IMG/VR virus record: IMGVR_UViG_2554235184_000006
Reading direction: 5' to 3' (one strand)
DNA from: a virus
Taxonomy: Duplodnaviria > Heunggongvirae > Uroviricota > Caudoviricetes
DNA length: 9,170 nucleotides
The notes below the pieces were generated by a model. The model saw nothing but the letters and a program-made list of their open reading frames with translations. It did no database searches and had not been told where the DNA came from. Made by a program: the position numbers and the translations under genes. The first letter of the stretch is position 1. Every line of letters begins with the position of its first letter. Below are positions 1,361-9,052 of the stretch, in pieces.

Positions 1361-1729
1361 ATGACCGAACGCATAGAATTTGTTTTGCCTTACTCGCCGA
1401 CGGTGAACACTTACTGGCGACGCCGTGGCAGCACATATTTTGTATCAAAAGCCGGGGAGCGTTATCGCCGGGCAGTGGCGCTTATTGTTCGCCAGCAGCG
1501 ACTGAAATTAAGCCTGTCCGGACGGCTGGCAATAAAAATTATTGCAGAGCCACCGGATAAGCGTCGTCGTGACCTGGACAATATTCTGAAAGCACCACTG
1601 GATGCGCTGACGCACGCGGGGTTGTTAATGGACGATGAGCAGTTTGATGAAATCAATATTGTACGTGGCCAGCCAGTATCTGGTGGACGGCTGGAGATAA
1701 GAATTACAGAGGTGGGTGTGCATGAATAA
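1361..1729 (+). CDS. rusA: RusA-family Holliday junction resolvase, 122 aa
   Basis: Translation contains the conserved RusA acidic motif PDKRRRDLDN and ends GGRLEIRITE, closely matching E. coli RusA as I remember it (PDRRRRDLDN...GGRLELTITE). Size and position just upstream of Q are typical. Confidence 0.9.
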   Translation: MTERIEFVLPYSPTVNTYWRRRGSTYFVSKAGERYRRAVALIVRQQRLKLSLSGRLAIKIIAEPPDKRRRDLDNILKAPLDALTHAGLLMDDEQFDEINIVRGQPVSGGRLEIRITEVGVHE

Positions 1730-2411
1730 CCAGTATTTACAGTTTGTTCGTGAGCAACTCATGATTGCCACTGCAGATCTCAGTGGGTCGACAAAATGCC
1801 AGCTGGAAGCCTGGCAGGAAAATGCCCTGTTCGATACAGGGCGTTACAGACGCAAAAAAATTCGTTACCGCGATGAGGTAACCGGAAAAATGATCACGCG
1901 GGATAATCCCCCGATCCAGGGTAAACAATCACTGGCGAAAGGCTCATCAATTGCGCTGGTCAGTCCTGTTGAGTTTGCAACATCATCGTGGCGGCGTGCT
2001 GTTCTGGAACTGGAAGAACATCAGAAGGCGTGGTTGTTGTGGTGTTATGGCGGAAACATTTGCTGGGAGCATCAGATCGCGATAACGCAGTGGGGGTGGA
2101 GTGAATTTAAAACTCAGTCCGGCTCCAGAAAAATTGCAGTGAAAACGCTGGAGCGTGTGAAGAAGTTGATCTGGCTGGCGGCACAGGATGTCAGAGGATG
2201 GGTTACCGGGTGTGAGGTCTACCAGAGACAGGAGCTTGCCAGACTGTGTGGAGTTAAGCCTGATAACTGGAGCCATAATTATGCGAACTACTGGCGTGAG
2301 ATGTGCGATATTTTTAAGCGCCTCGATAGAGAATCCTTGATTTGCTCCGTGAAAATAAGAGCGCAACAAAAAGCGACCTTTTCACGACGAGATATTGCAA
2401 AAGTCAATTAA
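1722..2411 (+). CDS. Q: Late-gene antitermination protein Q (phage 21/82-type), about 229 aa
   Basis: ATG at 1722 overlaps the rusA stop (TAA 1727-1729), indicating translational coupling; the ORF track's GTG at 1716 is a less likely start. Sits directly upstream of a promoter-like region, intrinsic terminators and the lysis cassette. N-terminus MNNQYLQFVREQL matches my recollection of QuuQ-type Q proteins. Family assignment not verified. Confidence 0.7.
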   Translation: MNNQYLQFVREQLMIATADLSGSTKCQLEAWQENALFDTGRYRRKKIRYRDEVTGKMITRDNPPIQGKQSLAKGSSIALVSPVEFATSSWRRAVLELEEHQKAWLLWCYGGNICWEHQIAITQWGWSEFKTQSGSRKIAVKTLERVKKLIWLAAQDVRGWVTGCEVYQRQELARLCGVKPDNWSHNYANYWREMCDIFKRLDRESLICSVKIRAQQKATFSRRDIAKVN

Positions 2412-2435
2412 ATCGCGTATGTTTCGTATAAATCT
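2395..2435 (+). promoter_or_regulatory. Candidate late promoter (PR'-like) with possible Q-utilisation region
   Basis: TTGCAA (2395-2400), 17-bp spacer, TATGTT (2418-2423); a second -10-like TATAAAT at 2427-2433 could act as a sigma70 pause element as in lambda PR'. Sequence-only prediction. Confidence 0.25.
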
Positions 2436-2472
2436 GATATTTTGCCGATTTTGTACGTGATGGCAAAGTAAG

Positions 2473-2500
2473 AAAAAACCACCGCCAGGTGGTTTTTTTT
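2473..2500 (+). terminator. Rho-independent terminator (candidate tR')
   Basis: AAAAAACCACC (2473-2483), loop GCCA, GGTGGTTTTTT then 8 T in total (2493-2500). A-tract/T-tract symmetry suggests it could work in both directions. About 62 nt after the Q stop. Confidence 0.6.
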
Positions 2501-2623
2501 ATGTCCGAAAATCGCGTCAGTACAGTAAACGCGCTGGTGGTTGCGAATACGGGTCTTTCAGCTTGCCGGCTTTTTCGACAAGAGTTATTGGTATGTCACG
2601 TTAACCGGAAAAGGGAAAAAGAC

Positions 2624-2821
2624 ATGCTAAAACAGCAGGATATGACAGAAGCCGCCAGAGTGGTGTTTAATGAATTAAGCGTTACCGACCCGGCGACAGT
2701 CAGGGAGATTGCACAGAATACTTACCTTTCACGCGAACGCTGCCAGTTAATACTGACCCAGCTTGTTATGGCGGGTCTGGCAGACTATCAGTTTGGTTGT
2801 TACAGACACCTTCAGTCCTGA
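2624..2821 (+). CDS. Small winged-helix protein (PapI/FaeA-like), 65 aa
   Basis: ATG 2624 with AAGGGA RBS (2611-2616). Segment TVREIAQNTYLSRERCQLILTQLVMAGLA resembles the recognition-helix region of PapI/FaeA-type regulators. The track ORF 2489..2821 starts with GTG inside the terminator T-tract and has no RBS, so the shorter form is preferred. Confidence 0.45.
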   Translation: MLKQQDMTEAARVVFNELSVTDPATVREIAQNTYLSRERCQLILTQLVMAGLADYQFGCYRHLQS

Positions 2822-2835
2822 AGGCTTTTTTATTT
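2809..2835 (+). terminator. Rho-independent terminator overlapping the stop codon of the small wHTH gene
   Basis: CCTTC (2809-2813) pairs with GAAGG (2820-2824), followed by TTTTTTATTT (2826-2835). Short stem, so moderate confidence. Confidence 0.45.
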
Positions 2836-3134
2836 GTGGTAAATGGGCGGCTGGTGGGTGTGGTGGTTGTTGCTTTCCCGTTGCTGAAAAAGAAAACGCC
2901 AGACTGTTAGCCGGGTATCAGTTAGCGGGAGAAATTTTTAAATACTTCACAATTCAGGCGGTTGACTGTTGTCTGGTTTGCGGGGAGTTTGTTAAAAGAA
3001 ACTGGCATGGTGAATCCCCCTGTGCGGAGGGGCAATCAGCGAGTAGGTATATGGGATAATCGCGGATTCAGGTGCTGGTACTGAATTCACCGGGAGGCAC
3101 CCGGCACCATGCAATGGCACATAGCGCCACTCTC

Positions 3135-3170
3135 CAGCCCCTCTCCGGAGGGGCTGTTTATATTGATTTT
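3135..3170 (+). terminator. Rho-independent terminator at the edge of the AT-rich island
   Basis: Perfect 9-bp stem CAGCCCCTC (3135-3143), loop TCCG, GAGGGGCTG (3148-3156), followed by TTTATATTGATTTT. Sits between upstream + strand transcription and the 3' end of the minus-strand gene 3191..3526. Confidence 0.6.
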
Positions 3171-3190
3171 GTCAGATGTGAGTAAACTCC

Positions 3191-3526
3191 TTATGGACTT
3201 TGTTGTTTTAGCCCATAAGGACATATTTGCAGAGTGCAACGGTTATTAAAGCATTCATTCAATACGTTATCTGTATTTGTAGGGCATTCCTGGCTGTTTT
3301 TGATTAAATTCCAGAATGTTTTATTGAATGGTACTACGTTGTAAATGGTTACAGGTAGCACTTTGTTATTGAGCATGATACCTGTGTGAGTCAGTGTAAA
3401 TATACTTTCAGGAGGTAAGAAAGCATCCGATTGATACCAGATTATTAATTTTATTTTACTCCATATGACTGAAAAAGATATTCCGCATGATGGCTGGATA
3501 ACTGTATCAATCACAATCCACTTCAT
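3191..3526 (-). CDS. Hypothetical Cys-containing protein in an AT-rich island, 111 aa
   Basis: Minus-strand ATG (3524-3526) with AAGGAA RBS 5-6 nt upstream. Composition is strongly AT-rich compared with flanking phage genes. Opposite orientation to the late operon. Six Cys, four of them in the C-terminal [26 protein letters not shown]. No family recognised. Confidence 0.55.
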
Positions 3527-3786
3527 TTAGTTTCCTTGTTTATGCCTTGCTGGTGATGTTCTGAAAAGTATAAATGATATTTTTGATTGTAAACCATAGA
3601 GCAGAATTATTTTTCTGATGTTGTTTATTGTTTATTTAAATGCAGGGTGGTTTATATCTCGTCTTGTAGTTTATCCATGCATATCTGCTTGATGATGAGG
3701 TTTTTATTTAAGGTATGGTTTTGTGTTTTTTCTGTATTACATGTCAGGTATTTTAAAGAATCATTTTTCAGATGGTGGAAAGAACC

Positions 3787-3975
3787 ATGGCATTTAAACA
3801 CTATGATGTTGTCAGGGCGGCGTCGCCGTCAGATCTTGCGGAAAAGCTGACACATAAACTGAAAGAGGGCTGGCAGCCGTTTGGTAGTCCGGTGGCCATA
3901 ACCCCTTATACCCTGATGCAGGCGATTGCAGCAGAAGGTGATGTGGTGGTCAGTGGTGCAACTGAGCCGGAGTGA
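3787..3975 (+). CDS. Small conserved phage protein (possibly the DUF1737-type protein found upstream of holins), 62 aa
   Basis: ATG 3787 with GGTGGAAAG upstream; the in-frame ATG at 3772 has no RBS. Translation MAFKHYDVVRAASPSDLAEKLTHKLKEGWQPFGSPVAITPYTLMQAIAAEGDVV looks, from memory, like the small protein commonly annotated just upstream of S in Stx-type lambdoid prophages. The family name is unverified. Confidence 0.55.
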   Translation: MAFKHYDVVRAASPSDLAEKLTHKLKEGWQPFGSPVAITPYTLMQAIAAEGDVVVSGATEPE

Positions 3976-4217
3976 TACTACGTCATCGTACTGGCCCGGC
4001 ATTCCAGGCCATAAAAGACGGTCTGGCAGTGGGACTAAATGCACTGACGCTGACGGATATTACCAAAAATGCAACGTATGGCGTTGAGATAGAAAGTCTG
4101 GTGCTGGAGATAAATGCACCGGCATCATCATAAAAAGTGAGCCAGTCAAATGGAAGGTATCGTTAAACTCACCGGTAGTGTCAGTGGGTCGTCTGAGACG
4201 CCTGCATGAGTTATCAG

Positions 4218-4250
4218 AGCCATCAGTACTTAACTGGTGGCTTTTTTATT
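4218..4250 (+). terminator. Rho-independent terminator immediately upstream of the holin gene
   Basis: AGCCATCAG (4218-4226), loop TACTTAA, CTGGTGGCT (4234-4242; 9 bp with one G-U pair), then TTTTTTATTGTTG (4243 onward). Confidence 0.65.
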
Positions 4251-4282
4251 GTTGTCAGCTTCCGGATAACGGGAGACGGGGT

Positions 4283-4498
4283 ATGTACCAGATGGAAAAA
4301 ATCACAACAGGTGTGTCATACACCACGTCAGCGGTGGGAACGGGCTACTGGTTCCTGCAGTTGCTGGACAGGGTTTCCCCGTCTCAGTGGGCGGCAATAG
4401 GCGTGCTGGGGAGTCTGCTGTTTGGGCTGCTGACATATCTGACTAACCTGTATTTCAAAATCAAAGAGGACCGGCGTAAGGCGGCGCGGGGAGAGTAA
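4283..4498 (+). CDS. S: Class II pinholin (phage 21 S21-like) with dual-start motif, 71 aa
   Basis: ATG 4283 and ATG 4292 (M-Y-Q-M) with GGGAGA RBS (4271-4276). Translation ...[66 protein letters not shown] closely matches the S21 pinholin as I remember it, with two TMDs and a charged C-terminus. The track ORF 4178..4498 is an upstream in-frame extension that spans the terminator. Confidence 0.85.
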
Positions 4499-4502
4499 AG
4501 TG

Positions 4503-5393
4503 ATGAATAAAAAATATGAACTGGTTGTTAAGGGGATAAATAATTACGGGGATAAGGTTACTGTTACTGTGAAGTCGGAAGGTGACGGGCAAGCGTCGCT
4601 GTTGTTGCCAGATGTGGCGATTAGTCTTGACCGTACTGAAGGTGCCACGCTGGAGTTTTACGAAGCTGAGGCGAAAAAGCAGGCGAAGCAGTTTTTCATG
4701 GATGTTGCTGCCGGGTTATGTGAATGGAACGAACCGTTGCCGGAAAAGCGCCCCGTAATTTTAGAGGCGCAGGATGTGTTGATAACCTACAAAGGAAAGC
4801 TACCGGGAAGAATTACTTGTTCTCTGAAGATGCCGCCGTCAACACTGCGGTCAGAAAAAGATGATGTTGAATCACGTATTGAAAAACTGGAGAGCTACGT
4901 CGTTGAGCTGAATAAGAAATGGTCGATATTGGTGCCTTCTGGCGATGAAAAGCAGTTTGCTGCGTTTGACGATTATTGTCGGAAAGTGATGAGCAGAAAT
5001 CTCGCAGAGTGTTTCAGTATTCATAATGATAATTTCAGTGACCCGGAATGGGAGTGTAACCGGCCATCCTTTGTTGTATCCGGTGATGCTGGGAAAATAA
5101 CCATCTCAGAAAATGGGAAAGTAACACCTCCATCGCACCAGCACAGTGAGGAGCTCATTGAATTTGCCATTGATTACCTGAAGAACAATAAAAAGCAGGG
5201 GCTGATGAAGCGCGTTGGCCGTTGCATGGGATATCTTCAGGTAGCCGCTGAGATTGAAGCGCTGGCCAGTGGTGCTGATAAGGATGCAATTGTGCGGGAG
5301 GCTCTTCTTCGTGATTTTAATACTCCACCCTTTAAAAAAGTGCCGGCTTACTGGCTTCATCCGGGGCTGACTTATCTTAAAGTGCGTATTTAG
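4503..5393 (+). CDS. Hypothetical hydrophilic protein inserted between holin and endolysin, 296 aa
   Basis: ATG 4503, 5 nt after the holin stop (TAA 4496-4498), with GGGGAGAG RBS (4487-4494); stop TAG 5391-5393. Long uninterrupted ORF with no TM segment or signal peptide and a K/E-rich composition. No family recognised. Confidence 0.7.
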   Translation: MNKKYELVVKGINNYGDKVTVTVKSEGDGQASLLLPDVAISLDRTEGATLEFYEAEAKKQAKQFFMDVAAGLCEWNEPLPEKRPVILEAQDVLITYKGKLPGRITCSLKMPPSTLRSEKDDVESRIEKLESYVVELNKKWSILVPSGDEKQFAAFDDYCRKVMSRNLAECFSIHNDNFSDPEWECNRPSFVVSGDAGKITISENGKVTPPSHQHSEELIEFAIDYLKNNKKQGLMKRVGRCMGYLQVAAEIEALASGADKDAIVREALLRDFNTPPFKKVPAYWLHPGLTYLKVRI

Positions 5394-5429: not shown

Positions 5430-5963
5430 ATGAACACCAAAATCAAATACGGCCTGTCGGCTGCCGTTCTGGCGCTGATTGCCGCTGGTGCGCCTGCGCC
5501 TGACATTCTCGACCAGTTTCTGGATGAAAAGGAAGGCAACCACACCACGGCATACCGTGATGGTGCAGGTATCTGGACCATCTGCCGTGGTGCCATCATG
5601 GTGGATGGCAAACCTGTCGTTCCGGGCATGAAGTTGTCGAAGGAAAAATGCGACCAGGTTAACGCCATTGAGCGTGATAAAGCGCTGGCGTGGGTGGAGA
5701 AAAACATCAGAGTGCCGCTGACCGAACCCCAGAAAGCGGGGATCGCGTCATTCTGTCCGTACAACATTGGTCCCGGTAAGTGTTTCCCGTCGACGTTTTA
5801 CAGACGAATTAATGCTGGTGATCGAAAAGGTGCCTGCGAAGCGATTCGCTGGTGGATTAAGGACGGTGGCAGAGACTGCCGTATTCGTTCAAACAACTGT
5901 TACGGTCAGGTATCCCGTCGTGACCAGGAGAGCGCGCTGGCGTGCTGGGGTATCGACAGATAA
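5430..5963 (+). CDS. R: SAR endolysin (phage 21 R-type true lysozyme, GH24), 177 aa
   Basis: N-terminal Gly/Ala-rich weakly hydrophobic segment GLSAAVLALIAAGAPAP typical of a signal-arrest-release domain. Catalytic E-8aa-D-5aa-T spacing is present in EGNHTTAYRDGAGIWT. Overall similarity to P21 R and DLP12 RrrD-type lysozymes, from memory. Confidence 0.9.
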   Translation: MNTKIKYGLSAAVLALIAAGAPAPDILDQFLDEKEGNHTTAYRDGAGIWTICRGAIMVDGKPVVPGMKLSKEKCDQVNAIERDKALAWVEKNIRVPLTEPQKAGIASFCPYNIGPGKCFPSTFYRRINAGDRKGACEAIRWWIKDGGRDCRIRSNNCYGQVSRRDQESALACWGIDR

Positions 5964-6119
5964 GCAGAATATTTTGCTGAAAAATGAGGAATGGCCACGC
6001 GGGCGGATAACACGAAATCCTGCGAACTGGCGAAACGTAAGTGAATAAAAGTAAAAACCCCGTTTGTTGGCACCAAGCGAGGTTTTGTGTTTCTGACCTT
6101 GAGTAAGGCAAGGGAGAAC

Positions 6120-6316: not shown

Positions 6317-6448
6317 ATGTCAGACAAACTCATAACGCTGGCGAAGATCCTCTGTGTAATTGTCGGCATTTCATTTTCACTAATGCTGGTTGCTCTTTTT
6401 CTTTCCATGGCCTGGATGATGTTGTCTTCGTCGGGGTTGCTGGGGTGA
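6317..6448 (+). CDS. Small hydrophobic membrane peptide, 43 aa
   Basis: ATG 6317 with strong RBS GGGAGGA (6304-6310). Translation [43 protein letters not shown] is almost entirely one long hydrophobic stretch. Stop TGA 6446-6448 overlaps the alternative Rz GTG start. Confidence 0.5.
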
Positions 6449-6456
6449 ACATAAAC

Positions 6457-6918
6457 CGAATGCTTTCCGCGTTTATCGTTATTCTGCTGGTGGCCTGTGG
6501 TGCGCTGTGGATGGCAACAGACCATTACCGTGATAACGCGATTACCTACAAAGCGCAGCGCGATAACAAAGCCAGTGAACTGAAGCTGGCGAACGCAACC
6601 ATTACTGATATGCAGGTGCGCCAGCGCGATGTTGCTGCGCTCGATGCAAAATACTCGAGGGAATTAGCCGATGCGAGAGCTGAAAATGAAACTCTTCGCG
6701 CTGACGTTGCCGCTGGTCGTAAGCGCCTGCGGATCAACGCCACCTGTCCAGGCTCCGTGCGTGAAGCCCCCACCACCTCCGGCGTGGATAATGCAACCGG
6801 CCCCCAACTGGCAGACACCGTTACACGGGATTATTTCACCCTCAGAGAGCGGCTGATGACGATGCACAAGCAACTGGAAGGGGCACAGGACTATATCCGC
6901 ACTCAGTGCCTGAAATAA
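6457..6918 (+). CDS. Rz: Rz i-spanin (inner-membrane spanin subunit), 153 aa
   Basis: Translation ...[71 protein letters not shown]...[19 protein letters not shown] is nearly collinear with lambda Rz as I remember it. N-terminal TMD present. Start is ATG 6457 or in-frame GTG 6445. Confidence 0.85.
6671..6856 (+). CDS. Rz1: Rz1 o-spanin (outer-membrane lipoprotein), embedded in Rz in the +1 frame, 61 aa
   Basis: ATG 6671 with GAGGGA RBS (6657-6662). Lipobox-like VVSAC followed by the proline-rich [14 protein letters not shown], matching lambda Rz1. Fully nested inside Rz, the classic spanin arrangement. Confidence 0.85.
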
Positions 6919-7555: not shown

Positions 7556-7647
7556 TGCTTCCAGGTAGAGAGGGGCTGGACGCAGGAGAAAAATGAAAGA
7601 GCCAGCGGTTATATTTTTGTCATGGCTGACGAGGAATGATGGAAGAA

Positions 7648-7670
7648 GGCGTTGTATGCCACACAACGCC
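7648..7670. terminator. Hairpin between convergent genes (candidate bidirectional terminator)
   Basis: GGCGTTGT (7648-7655), loop ATGCCAC, ACAACGCC (7663-7670), followed on the + strand by a T-rich run. Lies between the 3' ends of the + lipoprotein gene and the - ORF. Confidence 0.4.
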
Positions 7671-7677
7671 TCACTGT

Positions 7678-7857
7678 TCATTTCTTCTTTTTCTCTGGTG
7701 GAACCCGATGAATAAGAGTTGCACTGGTTTCCGATGAGATGGCGATATACTCGGGCAAAGTATGCTGGCAGTTTTCCAACTGGTCAAAAATACCTGCTCT
7801 CGTCTGTTGCAATGCCTGCAGCATGCGGCGGCAATGCGCCTTGCTTTTACTAACCAT
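7678..7857 (-). CDS. Small hypothetical protein, 59 aa
   Basis: Minus-strand ATG (7855-7857) with strong RBS GAGGAAGGAAAG immediately upstream. The longer track ORF 7678..8031 has no RBS at its start and overlaps the upstream gene. C-terminal KKKK tail. Family unknown. Confidence 0.4.
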   Translation of the reverse strand: MVSKSKAHCRRMLQALQQTRAGIFDQLENCQHTLPEYIAISSETSATLIHRVPPEKKKK

Positions 7858-8289: not shown

Positions 8290-8480
8290 GGTCCTTTCCG
8301 TCGATCCAACAGGTTACGGGGCGGCGACCTCGCGGGTTTTCGCTATTTATGAAAATTTTCCGGGGAAAATCATGTCGGTACTTCTCGAACATAACTATTT
8401 GTTTTTTCTAATATCGAATCCGTAAAAGGTCCGACATGAAAACGCCTAAAAAAGTCATTTTCGGGCACTTTCATGTCGGC
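8290..8480. other. cos site: cosQ-like segment, cosN with 12-nt cohesive end GGGCGGCGACCT at 8319-8330, and cosB-like region
   Basis: 8291-8365 matches the lambda genome junction as I remember it (...CAGGTTACG / GGGCGGCGACCTCGCGGGTTTTCGCTATTTATGAAAATTTTCCGG). Downstream the sequence diverges from lambda cosB and instead carries a TCATGTCGG repeat. Located immediately upstream of Nu1. Confidence 0.85.
8370..8479. repeat. Three copies of TCATGTCGG (direct, inverted, direct): candidate terminase small-subunit R sites of cosB
   Basis: TCATGTCGG at 8370-8378, its reverse complement CCGACATGA at 8431-8439, and TCATGTCGG again at 8471-8479, with an AT-rich possible IHF-bending region between the first two. 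This mirrors the lambda R3 / R2 (inverted) / R1 layout. Confidence 0.5.
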
Positions 8481-8506: not shown

Positions 8507-9052
8507 ATGAAGGTTAATAAAAAGAAACTTGCCGAAATTTTCAACGTGGATCCGCGAACGATTGAACGCTGGCAGTCTCAGGGACTCCCTTGCGTCTCCG
8601 GAGGTGGTAAGGGCGTTGAATCTGTATTTGATACCGCCATGGCAATTCAGTGGTATGCGCAGAGGGAAGCTGATATCGAAAATGAAAAACTCCGTAAAGA
8701 GGTTGAGGATTACAGGGCTGCCAGTGAGGCAGATCTCCAGCCTGGGACTATTGAGTACGAACGCCATCGACTTACGCGTGCGCAGGCCGACGCACAGGAG
8801 CTGAAAAATGCCAGAGACTCCGCTGAAGTGGTGGAAACCGCATTCTGTACTTTCGTGTTGTCACGGATCGCAGGTGAAATTGCCAGTATTCTTGACGGGA
8901 TCCCTCTCTCGGTACAGCGGCGTTTTCCGGAACTGGAAAACCGACATGTTGATTTCCTGAAACGGGATATCATCAAAGCCATGAACAAAGCAGCCGCGCT
9001 GGATGAACTGATACCGGGGTTGCTGAGTGAATATATCGAACAGTCAGATTGA
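8507..9052 (+). CDS. nu1: Terminase small subunit (Nu1-like), 181 aa
   Basis: C-terminal two-thirds ([74 protein letters not shown]...[43 protein letters not shown]) is nearly identical to lambda Nu1 as I remember it. The N-terminal wHTH domain is recognisably related but divergent. Confidence 0.9.

Follow-up and report, generated by a model that had tools for sequence, protein, structure and literature searches.

Terminators and cargo between the Q82-family antiterminator gene and the holin gene of an Escherichia coli lambdoid prophage

The window (the whole stretch of DNA that was analysed, 9,170 nt) is 100% identical in sequence to a prophage in 132 RefSeq E. coli genomes. The late antiterminator gene Q is located at 1722–2411 on the + strand (start taken from RefSeq). 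Its product matches PF06323 with 276 bits (cut-off 25) and covers 217 of the 220 profile positions. PF06323 is the Q82 family; lambda Q belongs to another family, PF03589, which shows no sequence relationship to it (PMC9388147). Q of phage 434 is 63% identical and is labelled 'Q82-like' by the curators; a PDB sequence search with the window's Q found no solved relative. The putative late promoter pR' (2395–2423, + strand) consists of a −35 element, TTGCAA (2395–2400), a 17-nt spacer and a −10 element, TATGTT (2418–2423). It matches the consensus at only 8 of 12 positions and for this reason is absent from a simple promoter scan; TTGCAAAA and TA..TT are kept in nine distinct Q82-type contexts, with varying flanks. 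Transcription would be predicted to start near A2430. The initially transcribed region contains a −10-like element, TGATATTTTG (2435–2444, + strand), whose pattern TG.TAT.T.G is invariant across the nine contexts. This is a candidate sigma-dependent pause element, and according to the Q-loading model (PMC9388147) it would be the site where Q loads. The assignment of a start site, a pause and a Q-binding element (QBE) to the window is made by analogy; a literature search with strings from the window did not find the pR' sequence of phage 82.

Downstream of Q, an earlier note on this DNA had described four hairpins with T tracts in series on the + strand, between the candidate late promoter and the holin gene S. 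All four are present (T1, 2473–2500; T2, 2809–2835; T3, 3135–3171; T4, 4216–4250) and their positions agree with this placement. Terminators were scored with a d'Aubenton-Carafa-type discriminant (d) along all 9.2 kb and on either strand, with 40 dinucleotide shuffles as background. T1, T3 and T4 are the only + strand sites in the window with d > 0. At d > 20 there are three sites, compared with a shuffle mean of 0.025. A second scan restricted to 2380–4290 gave 7 sites resembling terminators, where 2.2 ± 1.5 would be expected. As a check on the scoring, exactly the three curated + strand terminators between Q and S of phage 434 were recovered. The first scan, with a maximum hairpin of 46 nt, missed the long tR' hairpin of lambda, and the terminator counts are therefore conservative. 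Scoring thus places T1, T3 and T4 far above chance as predicted terminators (d 30–35) and leaves T2 marginal. Nor are the four sites equivalent members of a series, since T3 ends an sRNA gene, T2 is weak and T4 is conserved upstream of S.

T1 forms a stem at 2473–2498, or a core at 2479–2492 (CCACC/GGTGG), followed by T8, with a folding energy of −16.7 kcal/mol (z = −5.3). The discriminant is 35 on the + strand and 20 on the − strand, so that T1 scores as a terminator in both directions. In nine Q82-type contexts it lies 84–86 nt past the Q stop codon, and across Q82-type loci the stem shows compensatory changes (CCACC/GGTGG, CCGCC/GGCGG, CCCGC/GCGGG). The curated record of phage 434 annotates a 'terminator' at the equivalent site. 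Which terminator is the functional tR' had been left open in the earlier note; from its position and its conservation together with the Q82-type promoter, T1 can be inferred to be tR', the terminator of a predicted leader RNA of about 70 nt. T1 could accordingly be labelled tR' in the annotation of Q82-type prophages. The leader from pR' to T1 has an sRNA-like layout (hairpin, A-rich linker and U8-tailed terminator) and no Rfam match. Three Rfam hits below their gathering scores, STnc370 over T1 on the − strand (35.9 bits), Phe_leader over T1 (28.3 bits) and MIR8001 near cos, were taken as generic hairpin matches.

The first cargo gene is an ORF of 65 aa (2624–2821, + strand), weakly winged-helix-like, which matches phrog_331 (E = 5e-36) and gives a TrmB match below the Pfam cut-off. 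T2 overlaps its stop codon and consists of a 6-bp stem (2809–2824) including 3 GC pairs, followed by C T6 A T3. In the window T2 is within chance (d from −27 to +13 according to the stem limits; z = −0.5). Relatives have G in place of A at window position 2808, which gives a 7-bp stem with d = 26 at the same place. We therefore regard T2, which is found about 420–430 nt after Q in 15 loci, as a real element that is weakened in the window. The 65-aa ORF, T1 and T2 move as one block (window 2475–2861) behind three different Q types.

The next unit is the sRNA gene STnc100 (Rfam RF02076; 2976–3165, + strand), which scores 132.4 bits (gathering score 47); the covariance-model match is full length (model positions 1–206 of 206, E = 1e-29). 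STnc100 is on the late strand of the Q–S interval in 11 of 12 related loci. In Stx2 phages it is located 75 nt downstream of stx2B, and it was detected by qPCR in STEC vesicles (PMC12370729), the sole literature we found on its expression. T3 is the 3' terminator hairpin of STnc100 (model positions 177–206). Its stem (3135–3156) has 9 bp, of which 7 are GC (dG −20.8, z = −4.1, d = 31), followed by a weak tail (TTTATATTGATTTTG) with a short U tract (TTTATATTG). A second U run lies 10 nt past the stem, and a 'Q-dependent terminator' has been speculated on (PMC9388147); we rejected this reading of T3 because the lysis genes come after it and T3 is nothing more than the 3' terminus of STnc100. The RefSeq annotation is without STnc100 and its terminator and has a spurious pseudogene overlaid there.

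An iraM-like anti-adapter gene (3191–3526) is located on the − strand, opposing the late operon. It matches NF007393 (162 bits, cut-off 121) in NCBIfam and no Pfam family, and RefSeq names the product 'anti-adapter protein IraM'. The GC content of this block is 31–36%, compared with about 48–50% around it; the other cargo blocks are not distinct. Promoter-like sites were found on the − strand only. One of them, TAAACA-17-AATAAT (3606–3634), is located 80 nt upstream of iraM and is putative, being a consensus match of 9/12. No terminator could be recognised for the iraM-like gene itself, and visual inspection of its upstream region showed no convincing PhoP box. On the + strand no consensus promoter was found for the 65-aa ORF, STnc100 or the last cargo unit, with none reaching 9/12. 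This last unit is the remnant of a nanS-p-like esterase gene (3787–4133, + strand), comprising an N-terminal DUF1737 piece (3787–3975) and a C-terminal piece (3972–4133), with the deletion junction at 3991–4006. The two ORFs correspond to positions 1–58 and 582–632 of the 634-residue phrog_143, and blastn against full-length loci indicates that about 1.49 kb is missing, with a 16-bp overlap. The annotated DUF1737 gene and a 'hypothetical protein' can thus be re-annotated as the two ends of one deleted nanS-p gene. RefSeq flags the DUF1737 gene and a YdfR-family gene as incomplete.

T4 precedes the holin gene by about 40 nt, a distance that is kept upstream of S21-type holin genes. The stem spans 4216–4244, or 4219–4241 as a core, followed by T6ATTGTTG (dG −17, z = −3.8, d = 30). 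Across 20 variants of the sequence, pairing holds in 95.5% of cells, and 5 of the 11 pairs show changes on both sides; none of 500 shuffles reached this covariation score. The curators of phage 434 annotate a 'terminator' at the equivalent site. The holin itself (4283–4498, + strand) is of the S21-type class II and is the first gene of the lysis cassette (PF04971, 112.8 bits), with dual starts at Met1 and Met4 (MYQMEKIT).

In 39 related Q-to-S intervals we predict between 2 and 7 + strand terminators, with a median of 4; three are annotated in the phage 434 record, and H-19B has three. Four in series is therefore typical of a 'moron insertion site' and not unusual, contrary to what the earlier note implied. 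Its contrast with the single tR' of lambda was also overstated, as lambda is almost without cargo there (Q–S distance about 680 nt) and our scan of lambda found a second strong hairpin plus T4 at 45030–45065. Luk and Szybalski reportedly described tandem terminators in the late operon of lambda in 1983. Among relatives the interval can be as short as 799 nt or as long as 6.2 kb, and its blocks recombine independently. The shortest, with tRNA genes, belongs to a locus (L007) with the same Q type as the window, so the cargo is dispensable. Mosaic breakpoints are located at 2475–2486 (T1), 2861 (just past T2), 2935/2947 (before STnc100) and 3155–3158 (T3). Three traits of morons are found here. 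T2, T3 and T4 end blocks and the breakpoints adjoin them; the genes of the Q–S interval come and go between neighbours that lie side by side in related phages; and the iraM block stands out in its base composition. The suggestion that the terminators partition the cargo into insulated units holds insofar as they bracket units. The cargo does not all run in one direction, with iraM on the − strand, and the last 'unit' is the nanS-p deletion remnant.

The arrangement at the start of the interval resembles the Q-dependent late cassette of lambdoid phages with a Q82-family Q (phages 82 and 434). In the window, a putative promoter, a candidate −10-like pause element and an intrinsic terminator all lie within about 90 nt of Q, a short constitutive leader RNA is predicted from them, and Q matches PF06323. 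The window differs in its Q allele, only 63% identical to that of phage 434, and in an extra 5' hairpin of the leader (2438–2470) that is absent in 434 and in one further locus (L077). PR' is constitutive and is terminated at tR' to give a short RNA, which phage 82 also makes (PMC7547250). The StxS RNA (Sy et al. 2020, PMC7547250) is similarly a short RNA from a constitutive late promoter ended by tR', as predicted for the window, although the two are unlike in leader sequence and in Q family. Lambda, with tR' and 6S RNA, shares the single switch terminator downstream of pR' that is overcome by Q, whereas the window has 1.9 kb of cargo with three more terminators. The region 3' of PR' is a known moron insertion site, and the morons there bring sRNA genes as well as promoters and terminators of their own (PMC4104026, PMC8065619). 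Compared with the corresponding site of Stx and related phages (Juhala/Hendrix; Tree et al. 2014, PMC4104026), the window has the same variable cargo between tR' and S, organised in blocks with their own terminators and sRNA genes, differing in base composition and shuffled among Q types. Its STnc100, iraM and nanS-p blocks are those situated downstream of stx2B in Stx2 phages. The window lacks stx and the tRNA genes, its nanS-p is internally deleted, and an Rfam search detected no anti-sRNA of the AgvB or AsxR type in it.

The hairpins could in principle be functionless chance structures beside T-rich runs. T2 alone, with the values given above, falls within the shuffled range, and the surrounding iraM block is AT-rich. 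Three sites with d > 20 are far more than the shuffles yield, however, the pairing of T1 and T4 is maintained by compensatory changes and T3 is inside a 132-bit Rfam match; for these three, chance is already refuted. Even T2 turns up again in the 15 related loci, in the same position and with a better stem, and overall we consider chance very improbable. A more serious possibility, which we still regard as unlikely, is that some of the hairpins (chiefly T4, perhaps also T2) serve mainly in RNA stability, processing or translation control and not as terminators, for example by protecting the upstream cargo mRNA at its 3' end or by shaping the 5' region of the holin message. The covarying hairpin of T4 would fit such a role, as would a second conserved hairpin about 15 nt downstream of T4 that covers the S ribosome-binding site. 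In about 9 of 33 T4 variants in relatives the hairpin is kept with a poor T tract (e.g., CCCCTCTTGTTGTTG), and those loci are without a scored terminator near S; the hairpin may thus be selected for something besides termination. On the other hand, T5–T7 directly follows the hairpin in the window and in most variants (d = 30–45), the phage 434 curators call the equivalent site a terminator, and one element can be both a 3' stabilising hairpin and a terminator.

A further alternative is that the prophage is a decaying cryptic element, in which the terminators are relics and Q-dependent read-through no longer occurs. The internal deletion in nanS-p, the two genes flagged as incomplete and the point change that weakens T2 are what decay would produce. 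These lesions are confined to dispensable cargo, however, while Q, the promoter and pause element, T1, S, the SAR lysozyme, Rz/Rz1, cos and Nu1 look intact, and the same block is unchanged in the 132 genomes. We consider this alternative improbable as well.

We favour the reading, with a probability of roughly 0.85, that this late-control and cargo region is of the standard kind for an E. coli lambdoid prophage whose antiterminator belongs to the Q82 family, and that its terminators are read through with Q. In the lysogen, pR' would fire, the polymerase would pause at the −10-like element and, when Q is absent, transcription would terminate at T1 to give the leader RNA. Downstream would be a 'moron insertion site' of separately acquired units, each with its own terminator: the 65-aa ORF with T2, STnc100 with T3, the minus-strand iraM-like gene, and the deleted nanS-p with T4. 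Upon induction, Q would load onto the polymerase paused at pR', and the Q-loaded complex would ignore T1 to T4 and produce a single late transcript spanning the cargo, lysis and packaging genes. A Q-loaded polymerase ignores terminators over thousands of base pairs (PMC9388147), and read-through of T1–T4 would be expected from this established processive mechanism. The proposal of the earlier note that Q-modified polymerase must pass all four sites to reach the lysis genes is supported. T4 most likely stops transcription initiated in the cargo before it reaches the lysis genes.

Two further roles are put forward tentatively, as rather unlikely readings: T4 may be a selected 'lysis-cassette insulator', and the leader from pR' to T1 may be a trans-acting Hfq-binding sRNA like StxS. 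If T4 is an insulator, it would be kept since cargo promoters active in the lysogen would otherwise drive lethal holin expression. As far as we searched, neither role has been described for this type of prophage.

The layout is already known for E. coli lambda-like prophages, and the locus is in itself of minor importance. What it confirms is that a widespread E. coli prophage follows the known pattern of Q-controlled late transcription through cargo, the same Q-controlled logic that ties Shiga toxin expression to prophage induction.

The 9.2-kb window corresponds to the late region of a lambdoid prophage of E. coli. On the + strand, DUF968/ydfU (302-1360), rusA (1361-1729) and Q (1722-2411) are followed by a 65-aa ORF (2624-2821), the STnc100 sRNA (2976-3165), a DUF1737 ORF (3787-3975), a 53-aa ORF (3972-4133), the S21-type holin gene S (4283-4498), a DUF1327 ORF (4500-5393), the SAR lysozyme gene (5430-5963), Rz (6445-6918), Rz1 (6671-6856) and Nu1 (8507-9052); an iraM-like gene (3526-3191) lies on the - strand. 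The sequence from 1700 to 4520 is 100% identical to prophage in 132 complete RefSeq E. coli genomes. Everything in the Q-S region belongs to kinds already known, and its exact sequence is widespread among public genomes. The ORF at 4500-5393, between S and R, encodes 297 residues, with the DUF1327 match confined to the first 100; it may be a fusion or rearranged gene, since RefSeq labels it an incomplete YdfR-family gene. A lambda-type cos site (8319-8330) with the cohesive-end sequence GGGCGGCGACCT, then a cosB-like region, is located upstream of Nu1, so the late transcript would cross cos in the prophage.

The earlier note had placed four intrinsic terminators in series between Q and S, and hairpins with T tracts are present on the + strand at all four positions: T1 (2473-2500), T2 (2809-2835), T3 (3135-3171) and T4 (4216-4250). 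Every position on both strands was scored with a d'Aubenton-Carafa-type discriminant (d) built from the per-nucleotide hairpin energy and a weighted measure of the T tail. Scoring bears out T1, T3 and T4 (d = 35, 31 and 30; fold energies -16.7, -20.8 and -17.0 kcal/mol; z -5.3, -4.1 and -3.8 versus shuffles) but not T2; nowhere else in the window does a + strand site exceed d = 0. Three sites exceed d = 20, where 40 dinucleotide shuffles average 0.025. The 6-bp stem of T2 (-7.3 kcal/mol, z -0.5) is indistinguishable from shuffles, and treating the A2808/C2825 mismatch as a dangling end, or not, moves its d between -27 and +13. With G at 2808, as in relatives, the stem at this place lengthens to 7 bp and d rises to 26. 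As an independent check on the discriminant, the same scoring of the curated phage 434 record picks out the three annotated + strand Q-S terminators and no others. Hairpins with adjoining T runs are also seen at 6058-6082, between the lysozyme gene and small ORFs (sub-threshold; d = -18 on +, -6 on -), and at 7642-7687, after a TonB-like lipoprotein gene (d = -9).

Four terminators in series are not unusual. Among 80 viral contigs encoding the same holin, 39 loci were found to have an upstream Q gene (four types), and + strand sites with d > 0 were counted between Q and S. The number per interval ranges from 2 to 7 with a median of 4 (4.5 once collapsed to 30 distinct architectures), so the oddity implied relative to the single tR' of lambda is not real. 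These counts are conservative, because long branched hairpins such as lambda tR' are missed by the discriminant unless its length limit is raised. H-19B and phage 434 have three each. The layout recurs, with one terminator 66-102 nt past Q, often one near 420-430 nt, at least one mid-interval (in many cases the 3' end of STnc100) and a last one ~40 nt ahead of S. Lambda has about 680 nt between Q and S, and the same scan finds a second strong hairpin there, followed by four Ts, at 45030-45065. Luk and Szybalski reportedly described tandem terminators in the lambda late operon in 1983. Terminator density is 1.6 per kb in the window versus a median of 0.9 per kb, only because the cargo is short, a deletion in nanS-p having taken out 1.5 kb of coding sequence that carries no terminators. 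Mosaic breakpoints relative to relatives (2475-2486, 2861, 2935/2947 and 3155-3158) adjoin terminators, and one relative with the same Q type (L007) has a Q-S interval of 799 nt holding only tRNA genes. The cargo layout matches published descriptions, in which the region 3' of PR' is a moron insertion site with CDSs and sRNA genes (PMC4104026) and morons are units that carry promoters and terminators of their own and deviate in base composition (PMC8065619).

The earlier note left open which terminator is the functional tR'; comparison of Q82-type contexts answers this with T1. The Q protein matches PF06323 (276 bits), the Q82 family (PMC9388147). The named protein closest to it is phage 434 Q (63% identity), labelled 'Q82-like' by curators. 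When the region around the Q stop is aligned across nine distinct Q82-type contexts, a putative -35 element (TTGCAAAA, 2395-2402), a putative -10 element (TA..TT, 2418-2423; 17-nt spacer) and a -10-like TG.TAT.T.G in the initially transcribed region (2435-2444) are conserved amid varying flanks. A hairpin with a T run is kept 84-86 nt past the Q stop; its stems vary yet always pair (CCACC/GGTGG, CCGCC/GGCGG, CUGCC/GGCGG, CCCGC/GCGGG), and the phage 434 equivalent is annotated as a terminator. Position after Q, the conserved blocks, the always-paired stem and this annotation together argue that T1 is tR'. T1, whose A6-stem-T8 layout is almost symmetrical, qualifies as a terminator in either direction (d = 35 on +, 20 on -), and it might also halt antisense transcription heading towards Q.

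On the Q-loading model, which supplies the start site and pause, the predicted leader RNA would run from ~2430 to ~2500 (~70 nt). Short tR'-terminated late-promoter RNAs are documented in lambda, 21, phi80, 82 and P22, and that of Stx phages is the sRNA StxS (PMC7547250). The predicted leader has an sRNA-like layout, with a 5' hairpin (2438-2470; UAUUUUGCC...GGCAAAGUA), an A-rich linker and a U8 terminator; the 5' hairpin is present in the window, whereas phage 434 and the related locus L077 lack it.

The 65-aa ORF (phrog_331, function unknown) has its stop codon within T2. The T1-ORF-T2 block (2475-2861) is found behind three different Q types, one being the 127-aa Q of Stx2a phages and PhiR5_1. 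T3 corresponds to model positions 177-206 of Rfam STnc100, which matches 2976-3165 with 132.4 bits (gathering score 47). Of 12 related loci, 11 carry STnc100 in the Q-S interval, on the strand of the late transcript and sometimes in two copies. It has been described as prophage-associated (bioRxiv 10.64898/2026.05.13.724894) and located 75 nt downstream of stx2B (PMC12370729). In H-19B (L005), STnc100 (4585-4797) begins about 80 nt past stxB, and its terminator is therefore the first downstream of the toxin operon. Several related phages carry two diverged tandem copies (~70% identity), at 3124-3317 and 3593-3781 in L001, 3445-3635 and 3913-4122 in L053, and 4098-4288 and 4566-4775 in L062; all 15 copies seen are on the late-transcript strand. 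RefSeq (L002) leaves STnc100 unannotated, overlays it with a minus-strand 'hypothetical protein' pseudogene (window ~2995-3120) and calls a 15-aa ORF at 2863-2910; both calls are probably spurious.

The iraM-like gene (NF007393, 162 bits) follows STnc100 on the opposite strand, counter to the direction of the late operon; the block it occupies (3191-3800) has 31-36% GC and a promoter-like site at 3634-3606. The gene has no recognisable terminator of its own, and its transcript would meet the STnc100 hairpin in the wrong orientation. The DUF1737 ORF and the 53-aa 'hypothetical protein' match the N-terminal (1-58) and C-terminal (582-632) parts of the 634-residue phrog_143; by blastn against full-length loci they represent the two termini of a nanS-p-like sialate O-acetylesterase gene from which ~1.49 kb has been deleted internally (junction 3991-4006, 16-bp overlap). 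The identical deletion occurs in L001 and L077.

T4 is placed after this remnant. A hairpin lies at the same distance, ~40 nt upstream of S, in at least 30 sequence variants. Across 20 aligned variants, 95.5% of cells pair (23-69% in slid controls), 5 of 11 pairs are changed on both sides, and the covariation score was reached by none of 500 shuffles; the site is annotated as a terminator in phage 434. In about 9 of 33 variants the stem is retained but the T tract is poor, which leaves room for an extra role of the hairpin. That T4 is a selected insulator of the lysis cassette and that the pR'-T1 leader is an StxS-like sRNA of Q82-type prophages are somewhat new readings, which we regard jointly as rather unlikely. 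A second small hairpin (4259-4275; CTTCCG/CGGGAG, loop GATAA) covers the S Shine-Dalgarno region, just ahead of the two start codons, Met1 (4283) and Met4 (4292). More than 30 variants retain it, with loops that differ, and it resembles the sdi structure setting the holin/antiholin ratio in lambda S.

Q read-through past insulated cargo units is a reasonable functional reading, which joins the observed sequence features, family assignments and conservation to predicted termination efficiencies, promoters and Q read-through. In the lysogen, pR' transcripts would most likely end at T1, and the cargo units would be expressed from their own putative promoters, ending at T2, T3 and T4; a consensus scan found no such promoter for the cargo units on the + strand. 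T4 would keep cargo-initiated transcription out of the lysis cassette. On induction, Q would engage the paused polymerase at pR'. Since a polymerase complex carrying Q disregards pauses and terminators for thousands of base pairs (PMC9388147), it would pass T1-T4 and ~1.8 kb of cargo, antisense through iraM, and go on into S, R and Rz, across cos, to the packaging genes.
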